A stretch of DNA of 64,000 nt from a virus. Below are positions 26,396 through 57,181 of this stretch, piece by piece (the stretch's first letter is position 1; each line of letters begins with the position of its first letter). The notes under the pieces were generated by a model. It worked only from the letters and a program-made list of their open reading frames with translations. It made no database searches and was not told the origin of the DNA. The DNA lies in the IMG/VR virus record IMGVR_UViG_3300020182_000010, positions 1-64,000 of that record. One strand, given 5' to 3'. The position numbers and the translations under genes are program-made.

Positions 26396-26424
26396 TTTAT
26401 ATAGTGATTCGTCCAGAATGTCAA
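26396..26424 (-). promoter_or_regulatory. Sigma70-type early promoter with GANTC spacer
   Basis: TTGACA-ttctggaCGAATCActa-TATAAA. Confidence 0.8.
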
Positions 26425-26427
26425 GTG

Positions 26428-26613
26428 CTAATTTTGTTTTTTATGTCTACGAACACGTTCACGCCATACAACATAACTACGTTTTTTAAGATTATATTTC
26501 ATTATTTTCATAACATCATCTTCGGTTAAATCATACTGAGATTTAATATCAGCCCATGTTGTTTTATCACACCAGGCACTCGCAATAAGTTCAGATAAAT
26601 TATATTCAGTCAT
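26428..26613 (-). CDS. DUF2805/TIGR03643-like small protein
   Basis: AWCDKT...IK.QY.L.EDDV.KIM..NLK..SY..WRERV pattern. Confidence 0.7.
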   Translation of the reverse strand: MTEYNLSELIASAWCDKTTWADIKSQYDLTEDDVMKIMKYNLKKRSYVVWRERVRRHKKQN

Positions 26614-26819
26614 ATGATTATTACCGTAAATTTGTACGGACGCATCTTTATACCATCAGCCCACCAACTAGTAAATTGTTGTAGTCCGGCCATCAACACT
26701 AACACACTCCGCTGTGCGACAATACTCTGCATCGACATTTTTTGTATGAGAACAACCTCACTTCATTCATATGGGACCTTGTAACCCATACTAGCAAGTA
26801 GTAACTCTTGCGTGGCTTT

Positions 26820-26907
26820 TGGCAGACAGGGTGGGATTCGAACCCACGGAACCTCTCGGTTCGCCGGATTAGTAATCCGGTGCTTTCGGCCACTCAGCCA
26901 CCTGTCC
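26820..26907 (-). tRNA. tRNA-Ser, anticodon ACT (unusual)
   Basis: Anticodon arm CCGGA-TTACTAA-TCCGG, long variable arm, G73, encoded CCA. Confidence 0.9.
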
Positions 26908-26914
26908 ACATTCT

Positions 26915-26991
26915 TGGTCGGAGTATAAGGATTCGAACCTTAGACCTCTGCGTCCCAAACGCAGCGCACTACCAGACTGTGCTATACTCCG
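26915..26991 (-). tRNA. tRNA-Pro(TGG)
   Basis: CTGCG-TTTGGGA-CGCAG; CCA end. Confidence 0.95.
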
Positions 26992-26998
26992 AATTTAA

Positions 26999-27073
26999 TG
27001 GTATCCCGTAGGGGAATCGAACCCCTCTTTTCAGGTTGAAAACCTAACGTCCTAACCGATAGACGAACGGGAC
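26999..27073 (-). tRNA. tRNA-Glu(TTC)
   Basis: TTAGG-TTTTCAA-CCTGA; CCA end. Confidence 0.95.
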
Positions 27074-27164
27074 AAATAATCTCAAGCAGTTTATGGTCCT
27101 GCTTAGGACATTCTGGGCACCATTTGCTCAATTATTTTATAAGGGGAACAAAACCCTTTGACTA

Positions 27165-27241
27165 TGGCGCGGTTGACGGGACTCGAACCCGCGACCCTCG
27201 GCGTGACAGGCCGATACTCTAACCAACTGAGCTACAACCGC
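27165..27241 (-). tRNA. tRNA-Asp(GTC)
   Basis: TCGGC-CTGTCAC-GCCGA; CCA end. Confidence 0.95.
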
Positions 27242-27247
27242 TTGTTA

Positions 27248-27490
27248 TTATTCTCCAATGGCAAATGACAATTGACGTTCTGCATCTGCCTCTTCTTTGC
27301 GTTCTGCAATAATCATATCGACAATTTCATTAAATGAATCATAAAATTCTTCATCGTCTTTCCAGAATGAGCGACACGCAGCATATGCATCAGCATCTAC
27401 GAAATTCCAGTTGATTGAGTAATCATCATTGAGATTTTCTGATTTCTCAACTGCAGCACGGATTTCGATTTCAAGCATTGAATAGATCAT
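27248..27490 (-). CDS. Hypothetical protein
   Basis: 80 aa, GAGAG RBS, own promoter. Confidence 0.7.
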   Translation of the reverse strand: MIYSMLEIEIRAAVEKSENLNDDYSINWNFVDADAYAACRSFWKDDEEFYDSFNEIVDMIIAERKEEADAERQLSFAIGE

Positions 27491-27521
27491 TGTGATTCTC
27501 TCTCATTGTTTCTATACATAC

Positions 27522-27550
27522 TTTATAGCACTATTAAAATAGATTGTCAA
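27522..27550 (-). promoter_or_regulatory. Sigma70 promoter with extended -10
   Basis: TTGACA-17 bp (ending TGC)-TATAAA; no GANTC. Confidence 0.7.
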
Positions 27551-27566
27551 GCATTATTTTAAATTG

Positions 27567-27695
27567 TTATTCTAATCCCACGCACGGAATAATAATAGAT
27601 TGCTGGCAGTTATCTGGGTAGGCAATTGCAGCACCAAGAATAGGCAATCCTACCATAAAGAAAGTAATAATAATAAAAGATAACAATAGTTTCAT
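27567..27695 (-). CDS. Small membrane protein (42 aa)
   Basis: Own translation MKLLLSFIIITFFMVGLPILGAAIAYPDNCQQSIIIPCVGLE. Confidence 0.5.
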   Translation of the reverse strand: MKLLLSFIIITFFMVGLPILGAAIAYPDNCQQSIIIPCVGLE

Positions 27696-27712
27696 AAGTT
27701 ATAATCCTAGTT

Positions 27713-27796
27713 TGGTGGGCGACCCTGGAATCGAACCAGGCGTGCGTCTCCGCGAGGGAGTTACAGTCCCCTGCCACACCTTGCGGCCTGTCGCCC
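27713..27796 (-). tRNA. tRNA-Tyr(GTA)
   Basis: GGGGA-CTGTAAC-TCCCT, long variable arm, CCA. Confidence 0.9.
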
Positions 27797-27806
27797 ACTT
27801 TAAATT

Positions 27807-27897
27807 TGGTAGAAGTGGGTGGATTCGAACCACCTCAAAGGCGCTAATCTGGCGCAAAGAGCATATAAAACTCCTCTGACTACCAAGTCTCACTTCC
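27807..27897 (-). tRNA. Atypical tRNA, anticodon TAT (Ile), long variable arm
   Basis: Acceptor GGAAGTG/CACTTCT, T arm GGTGG-TTCGAAT-CCACC, anticodon arm GGAGT-TTTATAT-GCTCT, CCA. Confidence 0.75.
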
Positions 27898-27904
27898 GAT
27901 TTTT

Positions 27905-27981
27905 TGGTGCTCCCGGTAGGACTCGAACCTACGACCGACCCGTTATGAGCGGGTGGCTCTAACCAACTGAGCTACAGGAGC
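27905..27981 (-). tRNA. tRNA(CAT), probably Ile2 (lysidine type); elongator Met not excluded
   Basis: ACCCG-CTCATAA-CGGGT; paired 1:72, so not the initiator. Confidence 0.85.
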
Positions 27982-27989
27982 GTTATTTC

Positions 27990-28064
27990 TGGAGCGGGTA
28001 AGGAGAATCGAACTCCTGTCTAAAGGTTGGAAACCTACCGTAATAACCACTATACGATACCCGC
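27990..28064 (-). tRNA. tRNA-Gly(TCC)
   Basis: TTTCCAA loop, GCGGG start, U73, CCA. Confidence 0.95.
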
Positions 28065-28072
28065 GGTTTATT

Positions 28073-28252
28073 TTATCTTTCTACTAAAGGAGTAGCAGCC
28101 TGTGAATCATGATAGTCACCACTTGTATAGTAATCACGATACGCAACCTCTTTGACCATTATACCGTTCTTCATACGATATGTAACAATTTCTCTACGAA
28201 TGACACCAGTAGTATCAGCATCAAATGCGGCTTTAAATGGTCCATCTGCCAT
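28073..28252 (-). CDS. Small hypothetical protein (59 aa)
   Basis: Own translation MADGPFKAAFDADTTGVIRREIVTYRMKNG...; AAGGAG RBS. Confidence 0.7.
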   Translation of the reverse strand: MADGPFKAAFDADTTGVIRREIVTYRMKNGIMVKEVAYRDYYTSGDYHDSQAATPLVER

Positions 28253-28275
28253 ATTATATTCTCCTTAATAATATT

Positions 28276-28361
28276 TGGTACTCGTACCCGGACTTGAACC
28301 GGGACGCCTCAAGGGCAACAGATTTTAAGTCTGGCGCGTCTACCGATTCCGCCATACGAGC
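28276..28361 (-). tRNA. tRNA-Leu(TAA)
   Basis: CAGA-CTTAAAA-TCTG, variable arm, CCA. Confidence 0.95.
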
Positions 28362-28368
28362 ATATTAA

Positions 28369-28641
28369 TTAGATGATGTAATCATCGTGTTCATTTTCCC
28401 ATTGATTAATGGCATTTCTTAGTCCCATTGCTAACCAATCACCACCTGACATATCAAGCATTTCGCTCCATTGGTCAACAACTTCATCGATTTGTTCACG
28501 CTCTAATTCATCTGGTGAATCTACCCCAAAATGTTCCTGAATTAGTCCAAAGGCCCACTCGGTAACTTCACCTTCCAACCAATCAAGCATTTTGTGTGGA
28601 CGATGGATTTCAAATTTATCTTCACTCATGTTCGCCTCCAT
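28369..28641 (-). CDS. Hypothetical protein
   Basis: 90 aa, acidic, AGGAG RBS. Confidence 0.7.
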   Translation of the reverse strand: MEANMSEDKFEIHRPHKMLDWLEGEVTEWAFGLIQEHFGVDSPDELEREQIDEVVDQWSEMLDMSGGDWLAMGLRNAINQWENEHDDYII

Positions 28642-28654
28642 TTCTCCTTTAATT

Positions 28655-28731
28655 TGGCGATCCCTATAGGATTCGAACCTATGACCTAGTGCTTAGAAGG
28701 CACTTGCTCTATCCAGCTGAGCTAAGGAATC
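28655..28731 (-). tRNA. tRNA-Arg(TCT)
   Basis: AGTGC-CTTCTAA-GCACT; CCA. Confidence 0.95.
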
Positions 28732-28741
28732 ATTATTCTTT

Positions 28742-28957: not shown

Positions 28958-29141
28958 AGTGTATTCCTTTTCATCTGTTATAATAGTTATAGCATATTGA
29001 TTCTAGATTGTCAACCGTTAATTTCCAAAATAACTAATTAAATTCCACCAAGTATATTCTTTACCTTGGCCAAAATTCATCCAACCCAATGCAAATACAC
29101 TGACTAATACATAGCAAATAATTTCATTAAGTTTTTCATGA

Positions 29142-29309: not shown

Positions 29310-29336
29310 AGTAATCCTCATTGTTATTACTATTAT

Positions 29337-29365
29337 GTTATACAATGATTCGTTCTAAATGTCAA
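29337..29365 (-). promoter_or_regulatory. Sigma70-type early promoter with GANTC spacer
   Basis: TTGACA-tttagaaCGAATCAttg-TATAAC. Confidence 0.75.
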
Positions 29366-30394: not shown

Positions 30395-30401
30395 TGTTTC
30401 C

Positions 30402-36123: not shown

Positions 36124-36662
36124 AACCGTTTACTAGCCTTACTTCTTTTAAATAGTACCTTTTCAATATACCGATTATGGCGAAGTATGTCTAAATTTAT
36201 GTCAAACATCGCACGTATTTCGCCCATTGTTTTATTTTTATAAGGGTCAAAATCCACTTGATGTATATTCTTAGTTCGACGGGTCTTACCATAAATAATA
36301 CCCATATCAAACGCTATTAGTTCTCTTTCGCCAAATCGATATATTTTTGGAAATATATTCGATGCATAGTATTTATATAATGCAACATGCCAGTTTTTTA
36401 ATGACGTTGCGTTACCCATTGTGTAACCTATAACAAATGCTTCATCTTGATTTAATAATCCTCTGCCCAATAATGCGTGAATGCAATCGTGTGATTCTAA
36501 GCATATTGCGCCTGGTAAACTAAATGGTGATTTAGGATTTTCTATTATCTTTACATACCAACTTATGTCTATCGATTCACTACCCGGTAAAGTATTCAAT
36601 ACAGAAATGAGAGTGTCATTACCGTTTTCTATTCCAGGATTCCAATCACTGTAGTGTAACAT
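36120..36662 (-). CDS. Coq4-like protein (HDxxH...E motif)
   Basis: LESHDCIHALLGRGLLNQDEAFVIGY; ATGA overlap with putA. Confidence 0.55.
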   Translation of the reverse strand: MLHYSDWNPGIENGNDTLISVLNTLPGSESIDISWYVKIIENPKSPFSLPGAICLESHDCIHALLGRGLLNQDEAFVIGYTMGNATSLKNWHVALYKYYASNIFPKIYRFGERELIAFDMGIIYGKTRRTKNIHQVDFDPYKNKTMGEIRAMFDINLDILRHNRYIEKVLFKRSKASKRL

Positions 36663-36680
36663 AATAATATTTAGTCAGAA

Positions 36681-36783
36681 TAAAAAGAACCCGACTACCT
36701 AAGTAGCCGGGCCAAGTTTGCGAAGAGGACTATAGAGTGGATAATCCACCCTAAAGTACAGAGAAATCAATCTCTGCACTAGT
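36681..36783 (-). ncRNA. Candidate small RNA with own late promoter and terminator
   Basis: TAAATA, two hairpins, linker, CCCGGCTAC-TTAG-GTAGTCGGG plus T tract; no convincing ORF. Confidence 0.5.
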
Positions 36784-36814
36784 ATTTAAAATAAAATGAT
36801 ATAAAGATAACTAT

Positions 36815-37159
36815 CTATAAAACTTTTTCTTGCAATAATGAATATATACACTCAATTACCTGTGTTGAAAACCCACCAACATGCCAGTCATATTCGCCCA
36901 ATGGGGTTGAAGGACATTTCCAATCATAAATTGTTGCTACAACAAATTCACGCATAAAACTTCCAGGAGCATCTTGTAATTCAACTTCAAATTCTAATGT
37001 CCACTCAACACTGACTTTGCCATCACCGGAATGGTCAGCACGATATGTTGGTTCACCAAAAGCAGCAACTATATCAGCATAAGTTGTTCTGACATATCCG
37101 CGTAGTCCAGTGCCATTGACGTTTACACTTGTATCATTTGTAACATTAATAATTTTCAT
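36815..37159 (-). CDS. Hypothetical protein
   Basis: 114 aa, GGAG RBS; ATIYDWK...WHVGG. Confidence 0.7.
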   Translation of the reverse strand: MKIINVTNDTSVNVNGTGLRGYVRTTYADIVAAFGEPTYRADHSGDGKVSVEWTLEFEVELQDAPGSFMREFVVATIYDWKCPSTPLGEYDWHVGGFSTQVIECIYSLLQEKVL

Positions 37160-37302
37160 TGCACATCTCCTACGGTAAGATTTACTCGCTTTACACCGTT
37201 ACGCTTTCCAATATAAAAGAAAAACTTCTTTGCACTTTCATACGTTTTGAATTCTTTTGTCTTTTTAGGATAGTTGTAGTAGCCATATTCAACAGTAAAC
37301 AT
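37156..37302 (-). CDS. Small hypothetical protein (48 aa)
   Basis: Own translation MFTVEYGYYNYPKKTKEF...; GAGG RBS. Confidence 0.65.
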   Translation of the reverse strand: MFTVEYGYYNYPKKTKEFKTYESAKKFFFYIGKRNGVKRVNLTVGDVQ

Positions 37303-37329
37303 ATTTATTTCCTCTCAACTTATACACTC

Positions 37330-37358
37330 TTTATATAGTGATTCGTTTAAGATGTCAA
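37330..37358 (-). promoter_or_regulatory. Sigma70-type early promoter with GANTC spacer
   Basis: TTGACA-tcttaaaCGAATCActa-TATAAA. Confidence 0.8.
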
Positions 37359-37497
37359 GCACTAATTAAAATTTTATGACTTATAAATCATAGATAAATG
37401 AATAAGCAAAGAATTGGCATTGTAATCATTACACCTGTCAATGTAACATGTACAATCGACCAGAAAACCCTTTCCATTTCTAATCCTCTTCGAATTT

Positions 37498-38217
37498 TTA
37501 ATTGTTGTTGAAGTAATTTGCAGTATACTTCATTAACTGTTTTATTTGTTTTGAATCTTTAGGAAAGATATTTCTAAATCTCTGATATACAGGAAGTTCA
37601 TTTATAAACTTTTCTGGATTACGAATTGTTTCTTCTGGCGCATCTGTATCTCTAATTTCATCTGCTAAATCGTGCCCATATGCCATGAGTTCATGAGGAT
37701 CACGCAAATACATACGCATTAAATCTTGTTCTGTGCCGCCAGATTTTTTCTTCTCGACACCTTTCATATATCCACTACGATATGTCTTTAATACGTTTGG
37801 ATCAAATTTATCATATTGGTTCCAATGAATTGTTTCGTGAGCCAACATTTTCATAGCAATTTTTTTAAATGTTTCTGGTCCCCAACGGCCCTCTAAGTTT
37901 TTGGCGTGTAGAAATATTCTTACACTTTTGCCTTCTTTTGGATCCCAATCTGCTGCAGCACTAATCCATTCATCTGGATCTTTTCGTGGTGAATGGTCAG
38001 CAATAAAGTCGATAGGCAAATCATCGAAATTGTTAGCATTTAAAATCTCCTCAAGTTCATCAATATCATCACGGTCATCATTGTCAGCCAGATATTCTTG
38101 ATATTCTTTATTGGCTTCATCAATGATTTCTTCAACCTGAGAAAGAAAGTCTTCATCAGGTTGTAATCTGTTTTCTTGAATTATGATTTCATTTATTTTC
38201 ATGACAATATTTATCAT
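37498..38217 (-). CDS. Hypothetical HExxH (zincin-like) protein
   Basis: LAHETIHWNQ...YLRDPHELMAY; likely start MKINEII (38202) after late promoter. Confidence 0.65.
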   Translation of the reverse strand: MINIVMKINEIIIQENRLQPDEDFLSQVEEIIDEANKEYQEYLADNDDRDDIDELEEILNANNFDDLPIDFIADHSPRKDPDEWISAAADWDPKEGKSVRIFLHAKNLEGRWGPETFKKIAMKMLAHETIHWNQYDKFDPNVLKTYRSGYMKGVEKKKSGGTEQDLMRMYLRDPHELMAYGHDLADEIRDTDAPEETIRNPEKFINELPVYQRFRNIFPKDSKQIKQLMKYTANYFNNN

Positions 38218-38236
38218 TAATCCTAATAAATTATTA

Positions 38237-38575
38237 TTATTTCAAGTATAGTGGGCCAGTCCACTGAACTGTATAACCGCCATCAACGATATTTCCTCGA
38301 GCAGCATTACGTGCAGGAGCATTAAAACCTGCTGCTTTCAGAATATCACCACGCTTGAATTTCTTATCGTTGTCAGTGTTGACAATAAAACCCCAAACAC
38401 CATTATTGATAATCTTAATATATTTACTACCAGTCTTAACAGTAAGACGATTGTTAAACTCATTAATCATATTCTGAACATGTGTTTCAGCATCGGCAAA
38501 AGACTTACCACGAAGTAACCATTTAGCATAGTCTGCTTTGATTGTAGCGACAAGAGTATCAATTTGATTTTGCAT
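38237..38575 (-). CDS. Phage hypothetical protein
   Basis: 112 aa; KYIKI...VWGFIV...GDILKAAGFNAPARNAARGNI. Confidence 0.75.
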   Translation of the reverse strand: MQNQIDTLVATIKADYAKWLLRGKSFADAETHVQNMINEFNNRLTVKTGSKYIKIINNGVWGFIVNTDNDKKFKRGDILKAAGFNAPARNAARGNIVDGGYTVQWTGPLYLK

Positions 38576-38606
38576 TGTGTGATCCTTTGTTTCAATCTAT
38601 ACTTAC

Positions 38607-38635
38607 TTTATATAGTGATTCGTTTAGAATGTCAA
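38607..38635 (-). promoter_or_regulatory. Sigma70-type early promoter with GANTC spacer
   Basis: TTGACA-ttctaaaCGAATCActa-TATAAA. Confidence 0.8.
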
Positions 38636-38642
38636 CCTTTTT

Positions 38643-38900
38643 TTATGATACCTCATAACCTAGTACAGTTTCTACATATCCATTGCCATACTCACCAGCA
38701 ATAGCCAATACGATCTGCTCACGTGGTTCAGTATCCATATTGTCAATCTTTGCTGCAGCACCATCGATATCATTCGAATTGATCATCCACTGTACGGCTT
38801 GGAAATCAGATAGATCATCCTCATATAGATTTGCAAGTGATGTACCTTGTGCCTCTACGAAGTAGCTAAAAGTTTCATCGATAAGTTTCTGAATAGACAT
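38643..38900 (-). CDS. Hypothetical protein
   Basis: 85 aa between the two promoter repeats. Confidence 0.7.
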   Translation of the reverse strand: MSIQKLIDETFSYFVEAQGTSLANLYEDDLSDFQAVQWMINSNDIDGAAAKIDNMDTEPREQIVLAIAGEYGNGYVETVLGYEVS

Positions 38901-38936
38901 AGAGGTTCTCTTTCTGTTTAATCAATCTATACTTAC

Positions 38937-38965
38937 TTTATATAGTGATTCGTTTAGAATGTCAA
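38937..38965 (-). promoter_or_regulatory. Sigma70-type early promoter with GANTC spacer
   Basis: Identical to 38607-38635. Confidence 0.8.
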
Positions 38966-38967
38966 GT

Positions 38968-38999
38968 AAAAAGAGCGCCGAAGCGCCCTTTTATTTTTT
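38968..38999 (-). terminator. Intrinsic terminator
   Basis: Minus strand AAGGGCGC-TTCG-GCGCTCTTTTT. Confidence 0.85.
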
Positions 39000-39017
39000 A
39001 ATCAATTGCATTTTTAC

Positions 39018-39581
39018 TCATTGCACTTCGAACAGTGTATCAATAGTAGAATGTTTTGCTTTGCCAGATTTACGTATGATATCTTTTCTTATTCTATCTT
39101 GAGTAATACGTAATCTAGGATACTTTCCAGTTTCTACAATAACACCATCAATAGTTTTGCCTGGTCTATCTAATGCAGCTCGAATTTTTCTTTCGAATAC
39201 ATCAGCAAACTCGCTTCTAAGGATGACTATCATATCTACAATTTCAATTACACCATCATATGCATCGTATGTTACAAAAATGAAATCACTATTAGTTTTT
39301 TGCTTCTTCGCTTCACTCCAGTTATCATAACTTTTAAGATCAGACGGTGTTAATCCAGTTATTGTGATATTTGCATCAGTATGTGTACTTTGTGATTTGA
39401 TTTCAATACAATGTTCTCCATTGATAATATCAGGACCTTCACCAGTATTATAACTATCTAATCCTAATACATTAAATACTACCCATTTTTCAATTTCATT
39501 GCCATACTTTCCATCACCGACGCCTTCAGCTTCCAGTACTGTGCCGATGTAGTTCTCTAGTTTAATATCAGTCAGTCTCAT
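39018..39581 (-). CDS. PD-(D/E)XK restriction-endonuclease-like protein
   Basis: GNEIEKW...GPDIINGEHCIEIKSQ (E...PD...ExK). Confidence 0.6.
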   Translation of the reverse strand: MRLTDIKLENYIGTVLEAEGVGDGKYGNEIEKWVVFNVLGLDSYNTGEGPDIINGEHCIEIKSQSTHTDANITITGLTPSDLKSYDNWSEAKKQKTNSDFIFVTYDAYDGVIEIVDMIVILRSEFADVFERKIRAALDRPGKTIDGVIVETGKYPRLRITQDRIRKDIIRKSGKAKHSTIDTLFEVQ

Positions 39582-39667
39582 TTTATTCCATCCATTACTC
39601 GTTATAATTATATAATTACACTATAGCATATTGTACTTTATTTGTCAATGCATTATATAAATCAGTT

Positions 39668-40177
39668 TTATGCGTAATTGTCAAGCCACTCTTTTGCTAA
39701 TTGAACTAACAGTGTGTTGTCTTCTATATCATTTGCAAAATCCATAATCGTAGCAATTCTTTCTACATCAGAGTTTGTATTATTTTTGTTTTCATTTAAT
39801 CTACGTGACCTAATTCGGAAGTTGTAAGGTGAATTATCACCTCCCTGTTCACGTGGTAAAATATGGTCTAAATTAGGCTCATGCATCTTATCGATTGGTT
39901 TTTGTTTGTTCTCTCCTGAACCCCAATCGTATTGATAAAAGATATTACCTACATAATATCCACGTGATTCTTCTAAATGAGTTTCAATGAACACCCAAGC
40001 CTGTTCTCTTGTCCACTTATAATCTTTTGCATACTTTCCTAGAATTTTTAACTTAAAGTATACATCTGGATCATATACATTTTCTACAAAGAATGCATAC
40101 AATTCTTTAGTATAATACGTAGATTCATCAAATCCAGTATATGGAATACGAGAAGAAATCTGGGAGTTCATTGACAT
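39668..40177 (-). CDS. HNH-type nuclease
   Basis: LDHILPREQGGDNSPYNFRIRSRRLNENK. Confidence 0.75.
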   Translation of the reverse strand: MSMNSQISSRIPYTGFDESTYYTKELYAFFVENVYDPDVYFKLKILGKYAKDYKWTREQAWVFIETHLEESRGYYVGNIFYQYDWGSGENKQKPIDKMHEPNLDHILPREQGGDNSPYNFRIRSRRLNENKNNTNSDVERIATIMDFANDIEDNTLLVQLAKEWLDNYA

Positions 40178-40178
40178 C

Positions 40179-41435
40179 TTATGCTGCCTTCTGGTCTTTA
40201 AATATTGGCATTACTGTAAAACTAGGCATTGCCTGTTCTGCAATATCGACACCTTTTACCTTGATAGATTCCCATTCAAGATTTGGACTAGTCACCCGAA
40301 CCCATTTCAATACGCCTGCAGCCCAGCGAGTTTGCAGGTCGCACAATGCATCTGACATTAATGGTGTATCACTATCGTCATTGAATGGGCCGTTGATACA
40401 AGCACGATTTGCATCTTTATAAAAACCAGTCTTATCCTTTTTTGGACACCAACGCTCAAGTGCCTCTTCGATTGCCATATCCATTACAAATTCATCAATT
40501 GAACTTGCTTGTTGAGACTTTAAAAAGTGACATACCATTTCAATCATCTGCTGTGGAATACGGTTGCGAACATTTACTGTCTGTGACGCAACAATAGATA
40601 CTGCCCGTGTAAAGATTTCAGCACCATAGCGTTCATAGTCTCGCAATGCATTAGCAATACCAGTACAAGTACGAGGTAAATTTTCTCCACCCTTCTCTAC
40701 AAACGTAATACCATACGATACTTCAACAATCTGATGAACGGCATGCGCATTTTTTACTAACGGTCCAAGATTATCAATATCTAAGTCTTCTGATTGTCGT
40801 GTCAAGTACTGTTGTACTCGGTTGCGGTACTTGTCAAACTCACTTGCTACAAGGCTTCCAATGTTTACACAGCCGTACTGTTCAACATCAACACTCAGGC
40901 TTTCAGACTGTTCAAATTCAACTGGAATGTACCGAACCCCCAAAATAATAGACGCAACGTTACGATGCTGTGCATCATTCATATAGAAACGATCCTCTAC
41001 AACCGAATAACGTGCTAATCCATTAAGTACCTTCTTTGGTTCATATACGAACAGAATATCTTCTAACAAGTGGCGTAGCATAATACCACGCTGAACTGCG
41101 TTGTTCTTGTACATCTTATCAGTTGACTTATACATTTCACGAGGACGTTCAAGTCCCATCGTCATAAGAGCAGTTTCTTCCTGCCAATTCAAATCAATGC
41201 CTAACAGGGCCTTAGACTGCTTTAATACCTTCAATACTTTGTTAACAACATAATAAAGTGAAGGGAATGGTCCCAAGTCGTCGGTAGAGATATATTCTGG
41301 GACAGACTTAATAATTTTTTGCTTTTCATCATATGACACTTCTGAAATTGGACGGCGTTCGCCTACTGGTCCAAAAATCATCGCTAAATCATTTCCCCAG
41401 AGTTGCTTGGGATCTTGTGCAAATGGTACAGACAT
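40179..41435 (-). CDS. ParB/Srx-fold protein (DGQHR/DUF262-like)
   Basis: VQRG...FYMNDAQHRNVASIILG; likely start MSVPF after GAGG RBS. Confidence 0.6.
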   Translation of the reverse strand: MSVPFAQDPKQLWGNDLAMIFGPVGERRPISEVSYDEKQKIIKSVPEYISTDDLGPFPSLYYVVNKVLKVLKQSKALLGIDLNWQEETALMTMGLERPREMYKSTDKMYKNNAVQRGIMLRHLLEDILFVYEPKKVLNGLARYSVVEDRFYMNDAQHRNVASIILGVRYIPVEFEQSESLSVDVEQYGCVNIGSLVASEFDKYRNRVQQYLTRQSEDLDIDNLGPLVKNAHAVHQIVEVSYGITFVEKGGENLPRTCTGIANALRDYERYGAEIFTRAVSIVASQTVNVRNRIPQQMIEMVCHFLKSQQASSIDEFVMDMAIEEALERWCPKKDKTGFYKDANRACINGPFNDDSDTPLMSDALCDLQTRWAAGVLKWVRVTSPNLEWESIKVKGVDIAEQAMPSFTVMPIFKDQKAA

Positions 41436-41467
41436 AGTATTATTCCTCTTCTCTAACTTATACACTC

Positions 41468-41496
41468 TTTATATAGTGATTCGTATAGATTGTCAA
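41468..41496 (-). promoter_or_regulatory. Sigma70-type early promoter with GANTC spacer
   Basis: TTGACA-atctataCGAATCActa-TATAAA. Confidence 0.8.
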
Positions 41497-41513
41497 GTGC
41501 TAAATTTTAATAA

Positions 41514-41876: not shown

Positions 41877-41888
41877 AGTCTATACTTT

Positions 41889-42089: not shown

Positions 42090-42103
42090 TAATTATTCCT
42101 TGT

Positions 42104-42298
42104 TTAATCAAAAAAGTTACCTTCAATCCAATAAAATTCATCAGGGCCATCACTCCAAATGCCATCTTTTGATTTGGGATTACTCCATAACAATTGGCGA
42201 TTTGCTTGTTCCATAACTGAGATTGCTGTAGCACCTTCAAGTGTTACATTATTTCCATATGCAGTGAATGTATATTTTTTCATCGTTGTTACCTTCAA
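42104..42298 (-). CDS. Hypothetical protein
   Basis: ~60 aa ORF in operon. Confidence 0.6.
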   Translation of the reverse strand: MKVTTMKKYTFTAYGNNVTLEGATAISVMEQANRQLLWSNPKSKDGIWSDGPDEFYWIEGNFFD

Positions 42299-42537
42299 TT
42301 AAAATAAACGTGCAGATTATCATATATTGTATCGCCACCGTTCATTAACGCTGTCCCATCAATAAGATAAGTCATATGTTCTTGCTCAACTACAACCTGG
42401 ATATCACCGCCGTATTTGACCCGTGTACTAGTAATATTACCAATGAAAGGTGCACCTGCATAGTATCCACTAACTTCTGAACCTATAGCGTTATATAAGT
42501 TATCCATAAACGTTTTTTCTTCGTATGACACAATCAT
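42295..42537 (-). CDS. Hypothetical protein
   Basis: 80 aa, AAGGA RBS. Confidence 0.65.
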   Translation of the reverse strand: MIVSYEEKTFMDNLYNAIGSEVSGYYAGAPFIGNITSTRVKYGGDIQVVVEQEHMTYLIDGTALMNGGDTIYDNLHVYFN

Positions 42538-42565
42538 TTATTTTTCCTTTACAACATATAAGTTC

Positions 42566-42594
42566 TTTATAAAGTGATTCGGTTATAATGTCAA
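42566..42594 (-). promoter_or_regulatory. Sigma70-type early promoter with GANTC spacer
   Basis: TTGACA-ttataacCGAATCActt-TATAAA. Confidence 0.8.
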
Positions 42595-42606
42595 GAGAAA
42601 AATAAA

Positions 42607-43206
42607 TTATTTTACAAAGGCGCCAATTCTACCGTGTACATCTGGATAATCACGATATGTGTATCCTTTTGGTGGTTCTGTTGAGTCCCCCTTCCAGACT
42701 GGAATAAAATGATTTATATTGCCAGTGAAATCTTCATTTTTTCGAAAGTGAACTTCTATTAATTTATCACCTATAAATTCACAATTCATCCATGGATTCC
42801 TAGGCAAAAGTTCTATTAGGATTTCTGGAAATGGTATTCTGACATCATTTCTCCTCCAAGAACTCCATTTAACAAAAGTGTTTTCTGGTTTGACACCTTC
42901 AACGCATAAAAACTGTGTACCATTGTAGTAGTCAATACTAAAATGTCTACCCTCAAAGAACTCACACCAAAAGTGACCTATTGGTAGGTCCAGAGTTTCA
43001 CCTTCTATCCATGTCTTTTGAGCACCAAGACCAGGTCCCAGCATATTCACACAGGGTCTAACAATATAATTATCTGCTTTGGGGACATCGAGTCCAACTG
43101 GTCCACAGACATAACCTAGTTTGCGAGATAATATTAATTTATCAAGCGCCCAAATATCATTCGGGCTAATATTATGCCAAACAAAATCTTCTGCGCTATC
43201 TTCCAC
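42607..43206 (-). CDS. ATP-grasp-like hypothetical protein
   Basis: YIVRP..N..G.GLGA, FWCEFFEG.HFSIDY, MNCEFI...LIEVHFR. Confidence 0.55.
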   Translation of the reverse strand: MEDSAEDFVWHNISPNDIWALDKLILSRKLGYVCGPVGLDVPKADNYIVRPCVNMLGPGLGAQKTWIEGETLDLPIGHFWCEFFEGRHFSIDYYNGTQFLCVEGVKPENTFVKWSSWRRNDVRIPFPEILIELLPRNPWMNCEFIGDKLIEVHFRKNEDFTGNINHFIPVWKGDSTEPPKGYTYRDYPDVHGRIGAFVK

Positions 43207-47471: not shown

Positions 47472-47666
47472 TTAGTCCATTCTATCTAAGCCGCTATCTT
47501 CACACGGCCATTTTTCAGCATTGTTAGGAAATAAATCATTTAGTATATCATTTACTTCATATACAGTAATCGTGTGCTGTTCATCAACGTGTTTTCGATC
47601 TTTTACTAACTTTAGTAAATAATCTGGAATTTCACTAAGACATTTATAATTAAAGTTATTCATCAA
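47472..47666 (-). CDS. Hypothetical protein
   Basis: 64 aa ORF. Confidence 0.55.
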   Translation of the reverse strand: MMNNFNYKCLSEIPDYLLKLVKDRKHVDEQHTITVYEVNDILNDLFPNNAEKWPCEDSGLDRMD

Positions 47667-47871
47667 ACTTCATATATTCTACTTGTTGGTCACCGTTTTC
47701 TAATGTTCTACGGCTTTTGACTCGGATGAATTTTAATTCTTCTAACTGTTGTAGTAGTACGTCAACGGCATTTGCCGAACCAATTTTACGTCCATGATGT
47801 CTTCCCATCATAAAGATAACACCTGCAATTAATACGGCCCACAATCCAGAAGGTTCTGTAAACATTTCCAT
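47656..47871 (-). CDS. Hypothetical membrane protein
   Basis: 71 aa, AGGAG RBS. Confidence 0.65.
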   Translation of the reverse strand: MEMFTEPSGLWAVLIAGVIFMMGRHHGRKIGSANAVDVLLQQLEELKFIRVKSRRTLENGDQQVEYMKFDE

Positions 47872-47893: not shown

Positions 47894-47922
47894 AATATAT
47901 AATGATTCTATTATAATGTCAA
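47894..47922 (-). promoter_or_regulatory. Sigma70-type early promoter with GANTC spacer (variant)
   Basis: TTGACA-ttataatAGAATCAtta-TATATT. Confidence 0.7.
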
Positions 47923-48451: not shown

Positions 48452-51400
48452 TTATGCCAGCTTTCTTGCTGGCGGAGTAAAGCCTGGTGGTGTTTCAAGA
48501 AGGTCTGGATTATGAATTCCACCACCCGTATAAACTTCTATATCGGTCATCCATGAGTTTACGGTGTCAAAACGGGCGTTCGCCTTGTTTGTAAGACCGG
48601 ATATATCACTTGCATCTTCGTTTACAACTACTTCACCATTTATATAATGAACTATACGCCCATTTGATTGAAGTTCAATTGCAAAATGAATCCATCCCTG
48701 AGTATCCAATCTTGTATTACCATTAGCACTATGCGTATAATACTGGAACTCTCCATTGGAACCCCATCCAAGCGTATGAGGATAGCTGGTGCCAGCAATG
48801 AGCCATTGACTATAGGAATATGACGCGCTACTGCCCGCAGTAATCCCAGTCATACCTTCCCACATTGTGGGTTGAGCGGTTCTAAACTTTATGTAATATT
48901 GGTAGGTCATTCCTTCACTAAGATCATCAGTTGACCAAACGTGAACTGATCGGTTGGGCGAAGGGCCATCCAATGCGTTTGGATTGTTGAGCAAGGCATA
49001 TGAGCCGTCTTCAAGACCCCAACTATTTCCCCAACCTGTAGGATGGTGTAATGCAACATAATTTGTAGCATTTGTATCTAATTTAGCGGTCGTGACGGCT
49101 GCAAATGTAGCACTATCCCCACTCAATGACCACATCGGGGCAGGGCCTGCAGCAGGGACCTCTGCAGCGGTCTCTGCAGGGACCACATTCGAACCTAAAG
49201 ATTTAGTTGGTGGTGTAAAGTTTTCGGTGTATCTTGCAAGACCTTTAGTAATGCGGAAGTCTTGGATGTAGCCTTCAATTCGATTGCCGATTCCACCTCC
49301 GTCTCCTGCGTCAAATTCTCCCCCAATTGCAAGTATCAAATCATCCCAATTAATTGTAGATAACCCTGAGTATGTTTGAGACATAACTTCAGATCCATTT
49401 AAATAAGTTTTTAATGAAGTTCCTACAACAACTACGGCAACATGGCTCCATTCATTTTCAGGTACATTTGTACTGGTCGTCCAATAACTCGTTGATCCGT
49501 AATATATGGCTCCGCCTTCCATGCCTGTAAACACAATTACGTTATCTCCATTAGAAATTTTATTTAGACCAAATATCGCGCGATTGCCGCTGTATAATAC
49601 TGTTGGATTCACCCAAGTTTCGATGGTAAACCCTTCGTTTGTCACTAGTGGTCCAATTCCTAAATCTTCTACTCTAACATAACCAGTTCCATCAAAATAC
49701 ATTGACTTAGTATCAGCAAACTTTGGCTGAGCTGATGAACCGGTAGTATTTCCAAATAACGTTAGTTCATTACTACTTTGAGACTTATCTATAATAGAAG
49801 CGTCTGTTCCTTTGATGTGCAATGATGAACCAGAGGAAGATAGTGGAGCGGTAGGTGGTGTAAAGTCGGCGGTGTATCTTGCAACGTCTTTGGTAATTTG
49901 AAAATCGCTGATATTAAATGAACCAGGCCATTCCCCAGCATAAGAATTCAATCCAATAGCAAAATTACCTGAAATAAAGTTTGTACTATTTGATACTGAA
50001 CCTACACTTGTACCATCAATATATATATTGACGGTACCACTATTACGAACCCAAGCAACATGATGCCATTGATCTACGTTAATAGTTCCAACTAGGCCGC
50101 CCATCAGGTTATTGCCATCGGAATATAACTCAACTCCACCATCAGCGTGTATGCCGAGAGTGACATATGCTCCGGTTGTGTTAGTAGGTCTTGTATCAAC
50201 AAGTCTCAACCTTTCTGTGTTATTACGATAAATCCATGTTTCTATAGTAAAATCATTAGTTCCAAAATTTGTAATATTAGTATCATTTACTGTTAAATAA
50301 TCTCCACTACCATCAAAATACACAGACCCGCCGTGGATGCTTGGATTATATTCACTGTAGTCATATGGCGCCAATGGCATTGTGGAAACGTCACCAGTTA
50401 CTGTAATATCATGTGAGTTAGACGAACTATCTTTAATATATGGAAGAGAACTGCTAATTAATAATGCGGTATTAGCATCAGATTCGAATGCCTCTGTGGG
50501 TGGTGTAAATGCTACATCACTAAGTGATGTGCCACCCGTTCTTAAAACAGAGCCATTCGTTACAATGAGATCACTTATATATCCTCCGAAGAAATATTGT
50601 GTTCCTCCCGGTTCATAGCCTCCTATATATGGCCCATAAGCGTAAGAATTATAATTAGTGGAATTTGTGGTTGTAAGTACTAAAGAACCATTTACATATA
50701 ATTTTAGTGAATTACCGTTATTTGCATCTCTATTTAGACTTACATGGTTCCACTCATTTAGCTCGTAAGCATTAACTGTACTAAAATAATCAGCGCCCCC
50801 TGAGACATATTGTCCGAATATAAACTGATTAGTTCCAGTGAGGCCTAGGTAGTATCCATTCGCCGTACCAACTTTATGTGTATTAAAAATCGGGCCTTTT
50901 GCTCCTGTCGGGTACATCCAAAACTCAATACTAAATGAGTTAGTTCCGAAATTAAAATCTGAGAGTGCAGAGCCACCCAATTTCAGTTTATCGCCGGAAC
51001 CATCAAAGTAAGTTGAATATCCACCACTTCTATATGGACTAAAAGTACTAGCCGTCGCATCGCCATTTACTGTAATACTATGGTTATTAGTAGATGAATC
51101 AGTTATATTGTTATTATCAGAAGTTCCTGTTGCTGTTACAAGTAATGTTGTATTACTTGAATTTAAAACCGGAGAATTTTCTACTGGTGCTGCAGGTGCT
51201 GCGCCAACACTACCCATACCACTATGATTTTGGCAATAATAGTATAGTGTAGGTGCACCAACTTCTACAGTAATTTCTGTGTATGCACCTGTTTGCCCAG
51301 GTACGCCATTATAAGTAACACCTGTTGTATATTCACTGCCGCTATCATGTGTGCCGTTTGCAGTTGTGCTAAACTTTAATGGATGTCCAGCATTAGTACT

Positions 51401-51769
51401 ATCGCTTTGGTCAAATCTGTAAGTTTCACCTTCAGTTAATGTAACTGTTGGACTAGCGCCTATTTCATCAGTAATATAATATTTGTTACCAGTACTATAT
51501 GTGTTTGTACCACTGGCAACTGTGACTACATACGTTGTTCCGCTAAATGTTGCAGTAATAGCAGAATTAATATTACCGTCAACATCTGTTAGATCAGTTA
51601 AGTCTACCGGAACATCACTTAGTCTTGCCATTGGAATACCACCAGTTGTAACTCCATCATGTAGTATTATTCTGTTATTAGTGGTATCAAATGTAACTTC
51701 TGCCATTTCGCCTGTAAAGGATTCATGTTCTGTACTAGTGCCCTGGCGTAATTTTACTGATTTTGCCAT
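48452..51769 (-). CDS. Virion fibre/adhesin with Mtd-like N-terminus and tandem LamG (ConA-like) domains
   Basis: LRQGTSTEHESFTG..AEVTFDTT...HDGVTTGG; repeated YFDGSGD, FTIETW, WHHVA, ARYT..FTPP. Confidence 0.85.
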   Translation of the reverse strand: MAKSVKLRQGTSTEHESFTGEMAEVTFDTTNNRIILHDGVTTGGIPMARLSDVPVDLTDLTDVDGNINSAITATFSGTTYVVTVASGTNTYSTGNKYYITDEIGASPTVTLTEGETYRFDQSDSTNAGHPLKFSTTANGTHDSGSEYTTGVTYNGVPGQTGAYTEITVEVGAPTLYYYCQNHSGMGSVGAAPAAPVENSPVLNSSNTTLLVTATGTSDNNNITDSSTNNHSITVNGDATASTFSPYRSGGYSTYFDGSGDKLKLGGSALSDFNFGTNSFSIEFWMYPTGAKGPIFNTHKVGTANGYYLGLTGTNQFIFGQYVSGGADYFSTVNAYELNEWNHVSLNRDANNGNSLKLYVNGSLVLTTTNSTNYNSYAYGPYIGGYEPGGTQYFFGGYISDLIVTNGSVLRTGGTSLSDVAFTPPTEAFESDANTALLISSSLPYIKDSSSNSHDITVTGDVSTMPLAPYDYSEYNPSIHGGSVYFDGSGDYLTVNDTNITNFGTNDFTIETWIYRNNTERLRLVDTRPTNTTGAYVTLGIHADGGVELYSDGNNLMGGLVGTINVDQWHHVAWVRNSGTVNIYIDGTSVGSVSNSTNFISGNFAIGLNSYAGEWPGSFNISDFQITKDVARYTADFTPPTAPLSSSGSSLHIKGTDASIIDKSQSSNELTLFGNTTGSSAQPKFADTKSMYFDGTGYVRVEDLGIGPLVTNEGFTIETWVNPTVLYSGNRAIFGLNKISNGDNVIVFTGMEGGAIYYGSTSYWTTSTNVPENEWSHVAVVVVGTSLKTYLNGSEVMSQTYSGLSTINWDDLILAIGGEFDAGDGGGIGNRIEGYIQDFRITKGLARYTENFTPPTKSLGSNVVPAETAAEVPAAGPAPMWSLSGDSATFAAVTTAKLDTNATNYVALHHPTGWGNSWGLEDGSYALLNNPNALDGPSPNRSVHVWSTDDLSEGMTYQYYIKFRTAQPTMWEGMTGITAGSSASYSYSQWLIAGTSYPHTLGWGSNGEFQYYTHSANGNTRLDTQGWIHFAIELQSNGRIVHYINGEVVVNEDASDISGLTNKANARFDTVNSWMTDIEVYTGGGIHNPDLLETPPGFTPPARKLA

Positions 51770-53352: not shown

Positions 53353-53368
53353 TATAATCTTTCTATTT

Positions 53369-53779: not shown

Positions 53780-53781
53780 TA

Positions 53782-54006
53782 TTATAACCTCATTAAAAAA
53801 TCTGCTGCATCTATTTCATTTCTGAAATTAATAGTTGCTGTACTAATATATTTGTCTATATGACAAGAAAAGTCTCTAGATTCATACCGAGAGACTAAAT
53901 CATTTCTTAATTCTACATCACTTGTGCCATCATACATGACAACTACTGCATATGGCAGTTTTACATCTTTAATCATTAATGATTTTACTAGTTTCATTCC
54001 AGACAT
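53782..54006 (-). CDS. Hypothetical protein
   Basis: 74 aa ORF. Confidence 0.55.
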   Translation of the reverse strand: MSGMKLVKSLMIKDVKLPYAVVVMYDGTSDVELRNDLVSRYESRDFSCHIDKYISTATINFRNEIDAADFLMRL

Positions 54007-54248
54007 ATTTCATTCATACCAGTCATTACAGATAAGCAAGTACTATCTAGATTAAATTCCATAACTGTTGTCCACATTATTGGCAGAAACGCTGCTGTAA
54101 GTATAGTGATAATAATACCAGAAATAGTTAAAATCATATCATCTGGATTTTTAGGCAATGCTGTTACCATCATTATTGTTACTATAATCAACATTACTAA
54201 ACATATTGTTAATAACATTGTCAGCCATACAAAAAACGTTTCAGCCAT
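53994..54248 (-). CDS. Hypothetical membrane protein
   Basis: Two hydrophobic helices. Confidence 0.55.
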   Translation of the reverse strand: MAETFFVWLTMLLTICLVMLIIVTIMMVTALPKNPDDMILTISGIIITILTAAFLPIMWTTVMEFNLDSTCLSVMTGMNEICLE

Positions 54249-54258
54249 ATTTAATCAC

Positions 54259-55428
54259 CTATATTTTAGTAGTAGAATTTGCATATACTGAATTAAATTG
54301 ATTATTTACTCTAACAAATGTTGTACACTTTGTCAACTGTTTTAATTTTTGAGCGCCCGCATATGTACAAGTTGATCTAATACCTCCAAGAATATCTTGT
54401 AGTGTGCTTTCAACTTCTCCACGATATGGTACGAGAACTTCTCTGCCTTCACTACTTCTATAATTCTTTAGTCCACCAAAGTGCTTTGTGTTGGCTGCGT
54501 CACTGCTCATACCATAAAACTGTACAAATCGCTTTTCTTTATATACTGGTTCATAAAAATTATCATCGGTTTTGATAACTTCATCTGTTTCGTAAATCTT
54601 TGTTATTACTTCGCCACCGCCCTCAACATGTCCAGCAAGCATACCACCTAGCATCACAAAATCAGCACCAGCAGCAAATGCTTTAGCAATATCACCTGGA
54701 CAAGTACAACCGCCGTCAGCGATAATGTGACCACCAAGCCCGTGAGCAGCATCGGCACATTCAATGACCGCTGAGAGTTGCGGATATCCCACCCCAGTTT
54801 GAATACGTGTTGTACAAACACTTCCAGGGCCGATGCCCACTTTAACAATATCTGCACCATTTAAAATTAACTCTTGTGTTTGATCCGCAGTGACAACATT
54901 GCCAGCAATGATTACAATATTAGGATATAATAGTCTAAAGTCGGCAACAAAATTAGTAAATCGTTCACTGTAACCATTAGCCACATCAATGCATACATAT
55001 TTTAAATTAGAATTAACGTGTGTATGCACACTTTTAAATTTTTTTAAATCTTGTTCACCAATCCCAATACTCATTGCAATATGTTCTTTATATTTTGAAT
55101 TTGAATTGAAAAATTCAATTAATTCATCAGAACTATATGTTTTAACCAAGCAAGTAAAAACGCCTTGTTCTGCTAAAGTAGTTGCCATTGCAAATGTACC
55201 AACTCCATCCATATTTGCTGCCATAATTGGTATACCATCAAAATCGGATTCAACATATGGACCCGCTGGATATCCAGAAGGTAGAACATCAATGTTTAAT
55301 AACGGAGAATAGTTTCGAAAAATAAATTCTCTGTTTAAATCAACATCTTTTCGTGAACTAAGTATTGATCTTTTAGGCCGAATAAGAACATCACTATAAT
55401 CAAGTAATACTTCATTTTCGATACGCAT
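54259..55428 (-). CDS. guaC: GMP reductase
   Basis: [55 protein letters not shown]. Confidence 0.95.
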
Positions 55429-56039
55429 TATGTAGTTGCCTCCGATTCTACTTCTTCAACATGCCCATATTCATCACATTCAACAACAGTCACATTACAA
55501 TGAATTTCAAACTGATTATCAAGAAATTCCCAACCTAGTTCCTCGACTCCTTCTTCATATTCTTCATTATATGCTTCTTCGATTTCTTCCATCATCTCGT
55601 CAACGTCTGATAGTTTGGGTCCATTTGTTTTAATTGACCAATCTTCCCAGCAACCATCCCAACAGTCTAGCATTTCTGCATGTGGATAGTCTTCTGTTAA
55701 ATCAATCCATTCATCGTCAGTTGATGGAAGTAGAACATCTAAGATAGAAAAATCTTCTGGTAGTTTTTCTACATCATCTTCATAATAGGTGCACCCATGG
55801 TCACTTGCAAAATCGAATACACTATCATATCCTTGTTCTTTGATATATTCATCAATTTCTTCTTGTGTATCTGGGATAGAAAGCATAAACGATCCCCATC
55901 GCCATCCAAGTTCTTTATGAAGGAACGCAAACTTACCTTTATCTTCATCGTTGTTAGTTAATTCTTCAAGCGGTCTACGAAAGTATGTAAACTCTACTAC
56001 TGATTTTTTGCGAGTTGGTTCAATTCTAAAATGTTTCAT
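55428..56039 (-). CDS. Hypothetical acidic protein
   Basis: 203 aa ORF. Confidence 0.7.
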
Positions 56040-56125
56040 TATATACCTATTTCACTTATATTACAAATAAAAGCCTTCCCGGGCGAAGTCTAACCGGTTA
56101 GGATCTTCGCCCAGGATCATGAGAT

Positions 56126-56404
56126 TTATTGTTGAGAGTTTGATCCCATGATTTCTTTAAACTCAGTGATGATTTCACTATCCACAAGTTCGGAACGATA
56201 TAGTGCATATCGTTTTGTATTACCGTTATATACACCTACCTCGGTCACATCACCTCGGTCGTTTGTTGCCATCATGCCGTAAAGTTTATCACGGCCTCTC
56301 AAATTTTTCACCAAGCGAACTGCTTCCTCCATTGAAGGCGTCATTCGTCGTGATGGTCGTTTACCCTTATAATTATTTGTACGGGCATTTGGTTGATTTG
56401 TCAT
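56126..56404 (-). CDS. Hypothetical protein
   Basis: 92 aa, GAGG RBS. Confidence 0.65.
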   Translation of the reverse strand: MTNQPNARTNNYKGKRPSRRMTPSMEEAVRLVKNLRGRDKLYGMMATNDRGDVTEVGVYNGNTKRYALYRSELVDSEIITEFKEIMGSNSQQ

Positions 56405-56488
56405 TTATACATTCCTCTTATGACAAGTTACATTTAAGTTTAACATTTTAATTATTGCACATATTTGTGCGATTGTCAAGAATTATTT

Positions 56489-57118
56489 TTAATTCCAGCG
56501 ATAAAAGATATGTGATCCAATACGTCCGATCAGATCCATACCACGATCACTGCGCCAGTTTGGTTTAACATAGGTAGCATGATAGTGTGTAGCACCCTCC
56601 GTAATACCACGAAAACGTTCATCGTGCATCATTTCCCATGCAACCATTTGTGCACGGACCCAGTTTTCAGAACCTTCTGGTACTTTATCTGACTTGCCGT
56701 CACAATACCAAGAAAATTGGCACCTATTTCGACGCATATTGCCACGGCTATCTTTTTGTCCATCATACACTACTTCACATACCGTACTAGGATAATGCGA
56801 ATGTAATACTCGATTTAATACTACATCTGCAACTGCTGCCATGCCAGCATGATTATCTATTCCACTTTCAAAGAAAATATTCTGTGCCATACAAAATTCT
56901 TGCTTGTATTTTTTAGGCGAATATAGAAAGTATTCTTTATCTCTGCGTGATTTATAGTCAGATGCAGAGGCTAATACTACCATGTTTTCTACTGGTTGCA
57001 CGACATTTTGTAGAGTCGTAGTTTCATTTTTTACACTTGCCTGTGGGGTTGTTACACTAACTAGTGTGGTAAGAATTGCTGCATTCACTGAGTATGCTAT
57101 TACATTTTTCAGTTTCAT
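56489..57118 (-). CDS. Cell wall hydrolase (SleB/Hydrolase_2)
   Basis: CMAQNIFFES, VADVVLNRV, CQFSWYCDG, GATHYHA, IGSHIFY. Confidence 0.92.
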   Translation of the reverse strand: MKLKNVIAYSVNAAILTTLVSVTTPQASVKNETTTLQNVVQPVENMVVLASASDYKSRRDKEYFLYSPKKYKQEFCMAQNIFFESGIDNHAGMAAVADVVLNRVLHSHYPSTVCEVVYDGQKDSRGNMRRNRCQFSWYCDGKSDKVPEGSENWVRAQMVAWEMMHDERFRGITEGATHYHATYVKPNWRSDRGMDLIGRIGSHIFYRWN

Positions 57119-57152
57119 TTTATACCTGCACGATTGTTTCTGTTATATAACT

Positions 57153-57181
57153 TTTATACAGTGATTCGTTTTAAATGTCAA
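57153..57181 (-). promoter_or_regulatory. Sigma70-type early promoter with GANTC spacer
   Basis: TTGACA-tttaaaaCGAATCActg-TATAAA. Confidence 0.8.

Follow-up and report, generated by a model that had tools for sequence, protein, structure and literature searches.

A candidate GcrA site at a fixed place in the promoter spacers of an uncultured marine jumbo phage

The viral record IMGVR_UViG_3300020182_000010, here called G000, raises the question of why so many of its promoters should carry the same seven-base box between the -35 and the -10 hexamers, and what might read that box. G000 is a linear IMG/VR record of 155,152 bp with 35% G+C and an estimated completeness of 42%; its first 64 kb form the stretch of DNA analysed here, which we call the window. 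It is an uncultured coastal marine jumbo phage with an expected genome of about 370 kb, and it is distant kin of PA5oct and Atu_ph07. Its terminase and clamp loader are 54-55% identical to those of the Pseudomonas phage PA5oct, 53% and 44% identical to those of the Agrobacterium phage Atu_ph07, and 51% and 45% identical to those of the Sinorhizobium phage Phosso. The Helgoland and SOLA coastal metagenomes hold a gene identical to the G000 terminase, and among deposited phages no match was found by megablast with 8 kb or by blastn with one promoter of G000. The initial annotation had proposed that nine promoters of the window, each with a GANTC site, are activated by host GcrA on incoming DNA methylated by CcrM. 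Our results indicate that the promoters are real, as is the box within them, and that both are under strong selection. From comparison of the sequences, we lean towards reading the box as a docking site for a reader that is encoded by the host and associated with its RNA polymerase, the best candidate being alphaproteobacterial GcrA.

The + strand of the window holds exactly nine copies of TGATTC-N8-TGTCAA, each of them precisely where the initial annotation had placed it, and none is found in 100 dinucleotide-preserving shuffles of the window, which provided the chance expectation. The box is TGATTCG in eight of the nine and TGATTCT in the remaining one (at 47903), and the minus-strand form of all nine is TTGACA-N7-(C/A)GAATCA-N3-TATA(A/T). 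The hexamer pair TTGACA-N17-TATAW occurs 12 times in the window against 0.32 expected, always on the minus strand, and in nine of these 12 promoters it encloses the box. The box promoters have sigma70-type -35 and -10 elements ahead of a gene and, in those whose gene start could be called by script, 15-30 nt separate the predicted transcription start from the Shine-Dalgarno sequence and ATG. A standard promoter scan demands T at the last position of the -10 hexamer and therefore misses them.

The full record contains 20 box promoters, all on the minus (coding) strand. The genome-wide motif scan proposed in the initial annotation yields a single sharp peak: in G000 a GANTC starts at offset 8 after TTGACW in 21 cases, and at each other offset from 0 to 29 in 0-2 cases. 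Two relatives were analysed in full, G001 (342 kb, 92% complete) and G003 (203 kb), of which G001 is close kin, with a TerL 80% identical to that of G000 and 141 common open reading frames (ORFs) at 60% mean identity. The offset-8 counts are 17 in G001 and 28 in G003, over a background of 0-4 except at offsets 7 (G001) and 9 (G003), where the box is displaced by one base (see below), and backwards-read controls contain no copy of the layout. The layout is also widespread, as an exact scan of IMG/VR with TTGACA-N7-CGAATCA-N3-TATAA recovered at least 115 stretches, and among the matches listed 80 have proteins in common with G000. When 185,579 species genomes were scanned for the exact pattern, 79 stretches were recovered, of which 78 had a single hit; in tblastn searches of these stretches against the G000 ORFs, five had one weak match each, and no host clue emerged.

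It had been claimed that the seven nucleotides between the box and the -35 hexamer vary. Within G000 this is true only in part, TTCTAAA being common at this place, but it holds fully in the diverged relatives, since in G001, G003 and the complete genome G411 (see below) these nucleotides vary freely and the box is invariant. The flanks that our search had left free are C in 85-100% and A in 73-100% of copies, and the variants are AGAATCA and CGAATCG, that is, the K and the Y of YGAKTCK. Bar two single exceptions, TGATTCG, TGATTCT and CGATTCG are the only forms in G000 and its relatives. Nine promoters of G001 read TTGACA-N6-CGAATCA-TGC-TATATT, in which the distance from box to -10 is still 3 nt in a 16-bp spacer; other copies in relatives are displaced by one base. 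This suggests that the box is positioned relative to the -10 hexamer and the start, within +/- 1, and a reader tethered to sigma domain 2 would require just such a fixed distance. A few promoters have two boxes, in the arrangement TTGACA-CGAATCA-CGAATCA-TTA-TATA (G415 promoters 43917 and 53035, and G001 minus-strand index 303171), the extra copy standing directly after the -35, with its centre some 7 nt upstream of the first.

Read on the opposite strand, the box is TGATTCG, the published top word for GcrA, whose consensus is TGATTCG or, more broadly, YGAKTCK (PMC4647560, Haakonsen 2015), and whose DNA-binding domain touches all seven bases of TGATTCG (PMC5887438, Wu 2018). All nine copies in the window conform to this consensus in their flanking bases. 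In GcrA-regulated promoters the sites are narrowly centred around -20 or lie at +2 to +30 (PMC4647560); upstream boxes have been placed at -20 +/- 1 and -30 +/- 2, and the GAATC of PcsM at -22 to -18 (PMC9976885, Wu 2023). When the -10 hexamer is taken as -12 to -7 and positions are counted from a predicted transcription start 7 nt past it, the phage GAATC falls at about -21 to -17, and within +/- 1 of this in the relatives, in agreement with the -20 +/- 1 placement. The sense strand reads GAATC in the phage as in PcsM, an orientation that we compared through the published wording for PcsM ('GAATC, -22 to -18'). The GcrA/CcrM promoters of Caulobacter crescentus, such as PcsM, and those of the phage therefore have in common the seven-base word, the sense-strand GAATC, the place in the spacer near -20 and the YGAKTCK variants, and in both there is as a rule one box per promoter. 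They differ in that the phage promoters are not host promoters, have near-perfect hexamers, lie in a genome of low G+C and use only the TGATTC form. Caulobacter GcrA targets are weak promoters. To our knowledge GcrA boxes have been described only in the promoters of host cell-cycle genes, and in full-text literature searches no paper turned up that connects phage promoters with GANTC or GcrA.

No GcrA gene (PF07750, E <= 1) was found in nine uncultured records (G000 to G005, G411, G415 and G416), G000 being only 42% complete. A connection of phages to the GcrA/CcrM circuit has a precedent in the phiCbK-type Caulobacter phages, which encode GcrA homologues (Gill 2012, as reported in PMC3667746); these phages bring their own gene, whereas G000 and its relatives would be connected to the circuit through a DNA site. 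If GcrA is the reader, it would be carried along by sigma70 domain 2 and, from the side of the DNA that faces away from the polymerase, would read the TGATTCG of the spacer with its small DNA-binding domain. The contact would add binding energy and speed open-complex formation, activating rather than repressing the promoter, and the first phage genes could out-compete host promoters whenever GcrA-loaded polymerase is present. On this evidence the phage probably borrows host GcrA to start infection.

A further point of comparison is T4, which uses sigma70 early promoters and has middle promoters with a MotA box at -30 that work with AsiA. G000 resembles it as a large virulent phage with host sigma70 for early genes, an extra word in one promoter class and late genes behind TATAAATA, of which fourteen late-type sites lie elsewhere on its minus strand. 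In contrast to the MotA middle promoters, the -35 TTGACA of the G000 box promoters is intact and invariant, the extra word lies at -20 and not at -30, and it recurs in unrelated phages. Replacement of the -35 by a box at -30 was thus not seen in G000, where no search for motA or asiA genes was made.

The recurrence in an unrelated phage bears on whether the reader is of phage or host origin. The genome of G411 is complete (46.3 kb, with terminal repeats), and its replication module is headed by three consensus copies of the layout. It is syntenic with the cultured roseophage CRP-6, with about 40 common proteins (terminase 64%, portal 65%, capsid 58% and ribonucleotide reductase 72% identical). 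With all three jumbo genomes G411 has in common only PhoH, a glutaredoxin-like protein and a head-protein domain, and G411 and the giant phages have no plausible DNA-binding protein in common. A common phage-encoded reader is therefore unlikely, and a host factor would be the simpler explanation. The alternative offered in the initial annotation, a phage-encoded activator, loses ground for the same reason. One small protein of 51-65 amino acids (aa) in regions served by box promoters is 48% identical between G411 (19266-19421, -) and G003 (97727-97924, +), and may be an exchanged early host-takeover gene.

CRP-6 (MK613348) infects the Roseobacter RCA strain FZCC0042 (Zhang 2019, PMC6918029). 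It is the only cultured phage with the layout that we found among those tested, phage C48C1 being one of the negatives, and has two gene-proximal copies. One, TTGACG-N7-CGAATCA-N3-TATACA, lies about 35 nt before the gp05 ribosome site, and the other, TTGCAA-N7-CGAATCG-N3-TTAATG, precedes gp69. The layout is that of G000, but it stands in an unrelated 45-kb phage and has weaker hexamers. Ten of the 17 boxes of CRP-6 lie within its last 2.9 kb, a terminal non-coding region (P 1.8e-8).

We consider it rather likely that G000 infects a GcrA-bearing alphaproteobacterium, and that host would probably be one of the marine Rhodobacteraceae. The links to this family are indirect and run through G411 with CRP-6 and through a fibre of G001. 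The 1209-aa fibre of G001 is 49.5% identical to the CRP-6 fibre gp61 over 424 residues (E 1e-110), no other comparable match to it was found among deposited phages, and G002 carries the same CRP-6-like fibre. A cluster of ten transfer RNA (tRNA) genes in the window (26820-28731, -) suggests that the host is richer in G+C than the phage, since all ten read codons that end in A or U, as is also the case in PA5oct. The G000 fibre protein at 2076-4214 matched only short repeats of cyanophage fibres. A second, fibre-like protein of 1105 aa (48452-51769, -), with an Mtd_N domain and three laminin-G/ConA-like lectin domains, is likely to be a receptor-binding protein.

Several observations nevertheless weigh against GcrA as the reader. 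On the sense strand GANTC invariably has A in the middle, and the permitted GAGTC form is never seen. The promoters already have a -35 that matches the consensus, a spacer of 17 bp and a -10 close to the consensus, so that an activator seems unnecessary, and the placement at -20 rests on transcription starts that are themselves predicted. The layout is absent from the Caulobacter phage Cr30, the Pelagibacter phage HTVC008M, Atu_ph07, Phosso and the roseophages CRP-1, -3, -4, -7 and SIO1, and the CRP-6-like fibre was not found in the available parts of G000, G005, G416 and G003. In core genes the closest cultured relative of G000 infects Pseudomonas, only slightly ahead of the Agrobacterium and Sinorhizobium phages, and the cytidylyltransferase of G000 shares 75% identity with genes of Vibrio phages and 54% with CRP-6. 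GcrA itself occurs in only 36 of 61 sampled Alphaproteobacteria (a sample that includes one unpublished genome, G445, which enters no other claim made here). The Pseudomonas and Vibrio affinities, the apparent strength of the promoters and the dominance of one of the four YGAKTCG words, with no GAGTC form, would all be expected if the box were read by another host factor or by the polymerase itself, through the beta-prime zipper or sigma region 3, in a host that is perhaps not an alphaproteobacterium, the match to GcrA then being a coincidence. We think this unlikely, as the seven-base word, its place near -20 and the tolerated variants all fit GcrA, and we know of no polymerase-intrinsic spacer element with the sequence of the box. 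Moreover neither PA5oct nor Vibrio phage Va1 has the layout, and the sole cultured carrier infects one of the Rhodobacteraceae. The box could instead be an operator bound by a protein of the phage itself, which might activate early transcription or, more plausibly, repress it from within the spacer and so shut it off. Spacer operators are a common means of shutting off strong promoters, the genes behind the box promoters are mostly small and uncharacterised in a record that is less than half complete, and the 51-aa early protein common to G411 and G003 could be cited in its favour. By the standard of typical dimeric repressors, however, an asymmetric site of 7 bp is short, no GcrA-like gene was found in the nine uncultured records, and the same box at the same place in the complete, unrelated CRP-6-like genome, with its three common protein types, makes an operator of this kind quite unlikely. 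That the promoters are copies of a mobile or recombining cassette, comparable to the promoter-early stem-loops of T4-type phages, with the box kept by descent and not by function, would account for the common N7 (TTCTAAA) and start region (GTATAG) of many G000 copies and for the terminator-like GC stretch and T run that a few of them follow. This we regard as highly improbable, given that the N7 and flanks differ freely in G001, G003 and G411 around an invariant box, that the register of the box to the -10 is held in 16-bp spacers, and that terminator-like hairpins are at chance, with 3 against 2.9 expected in the 6.5 kb from 36500 to 43000. The coupling of early promoter and stem-loop, spread as a repeat, that marks the T4-type cassettes is not seen here.

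The initial annotation went further and supposed that N6-methyladenine on GANTC gates these promoters, with methylation fading during replication and so turning the early genes off. GcrA prefers methylated sites (PMC3667746; PMC4647560), but the preference of the full-length protein is modest, at 1.4-1.7-fold (PMC4647560). G000 encodes a 288-aa beta-class N6/N4 DNA methylase with a PF01555 match (record positions 123394-124260, -), behind a box promoter at 124877, and its best solved relative is CcrM (6pbd, E 3e-21). Its scores on the CcrM model (98 bits, cut-off 830) and on the YhdJ model (97 bits) are equal and far below both cut-offs, it is about 60-80 residues shorter than the matched CcrM chain and model, and none of its relatives in cultured phages exceeds 32% identity, which is too remote for its target to be deduced. 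The enzyme is therefore not assignable to GANTC, and of the GcrA and CcrM-like genes that the initial annotation had thought worth seeking, what came to light in G000 is this beta-class methylase. G005 has the same methylase gene and G003 a different beta-class one; no such methylase was found in G001 or in the complete G411, and none is annotated in CRP-6. The observed-to-expected ratio (O/E) of GANTC is 0.85-0.88 in G000, and the site is rarer than expected in the methylase-free G001 (0.60-0.76) and G411 (0.28-0.54), which would be in keeping with gating. An adenine methylase made early from a box promoter would, however, maintain methylation rather than let it fade, which fits poorly with an early/late switch. 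Gating of the promoters by methylation followed by its dilution thus appears rather doubtful to us, and the dilution switch is speculation. What survives of the original proposal, at the level of sequence, is a probable activation of early promoters by GcrA, for which the word, its place, its variants and the favoured host-encoded reader all speak. A separate observation on short sites concerns G003, in which GTAC occurs 18 times against about 1147 expected, GAATTC 12 times against 77, and GATC at an O/E of 0.30; this looks like escape from host restriction enzymes.

The nine box promoters of the window and two promoters that lack the box are listed in Table 1. The genes right behind the box promoters are small and uncharacterised, except for the protein with the SleB-type hydrolase domain and the 418-aa ORF. 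Homologues of the 112-aa ORF adjoin the motif in many related contigs. The start region is also kept, about 10-20 nt past each -10 (for example at 38916-38936), as TATAAAG-N3-GTATAG or with GTAAG or GTAATCA. It recurs in G000, G001 and G003, so that the conserved module spans -36 to about +10, and this region may provide a favoured context for initiation or belong to the 5' leader as an element of it. Two of the three box-less TTGACA-N17-TATAW sites of the window sit at the tRNA cluster and have an extended -10 in place of a slotted box. Such promoters with an extended -10 (TGC TATAA) are a second promoter class, serving the tRNA cluster, and we count the replacement of the box by the TGn of the extended -10 in favour of the box as a docking site for a host reader.

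Table 1. Box promoters of the window and two box-less promoters at the tRNA cluster
Feature	Position	Strand	Elements	Gene behind the promoter
Box promoter 1	26396..26424	-	-35 26424-26419; box CGAATCA 26411-26405; -10 TATAAA 26401-26396	195-aa ORF 25780-26367
Box promoter 2	29337..29365	-	box CGAATCA; -10 TATAAC	55-aa ORF, start 29309
Box promoter 3	37330..37358	-		48-aa ORF, start 37302
Box promoter 4	38607..38635	-		112-aa ORF 38237-38575, weak DUF7717 match
Box promoter 5	38937..38965	-	GC-rich stretch and T run upstream	85-aa ORF 38643-38900
Box promoter 6	41468..41496	-		418-aa ORF, ATG 41435, end 40179, without Pfam match
Box promoter 7	42566..42594	-		80-aa ORF 42295-42537
Box promoter 8	47894..47922	-	variant box AGAATCA (= TGATTCT, within YGAKTCK); -10 TATATT	71-aa ORF 47656-47871
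Box promoter 9	57153..57181	-		209-aa ORF 56489-57118, SleB-type cell-wall hydrolase domain PF07486
Contrast promoter	27523..27550	-	TTGACA-N17-TATAA, no box; extended -10 TGC TATAA	within tRNA cluster
Contrast promoter	28987..29014	-	extended -10 TGC TATAA; GAATC out of slot, 3 nt nearer -35	head of tRNA cluster

Other genes of the window are of interest in their own right. The load of metabolic genes is unusual for a phage (33280-36123, 52261-53382 and 54259-55428, all -) and comprises a full-length PutA (proline dehydrogenase and aldehyde dehydrogenase), a MetK S-adenosylmethionine synthetase and an IMPDH/GMP-reductase-family protein. In a search with PutA among 401 Pseudomonadota the best match was 45% identical, and nothing about the host could be learned from it. 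A 748-aa ClpA/ClpB-like double AAA+ ATPase (18560-20806, -; phrog_4871, E 1e-255) is 73% identical in G001 and 67% in G003.

If phages do carry GcrA boxes, an epigenetic reader of the host cell cycle would be a viral entry point, and there would be a concrete, testable mechanism for growth-state-dependent infection at sea. We tentatively raise the possibility that marine phages of at least two lineages with no relation to each other, PA5oct-like jumbo phages on the one hand and 45-kb phages of the CRP-6 type on the other, have independently built a GcrA box into their early promoters and so wired the start of infection to the GcrA/CcrM cell-cycle and methylation state of the host. CRP-6 on RCA strain FZCC0042 offers a cultured system in which this idea can be tested. 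Were it true, such a phage would fire fully only in replicating cells, in which polymerase is loaded with GcrA, and would idle in others, and there would be an unrecognised layer of control over the timing with which abundant coastal bacteria of the Roseobacter group are killed.

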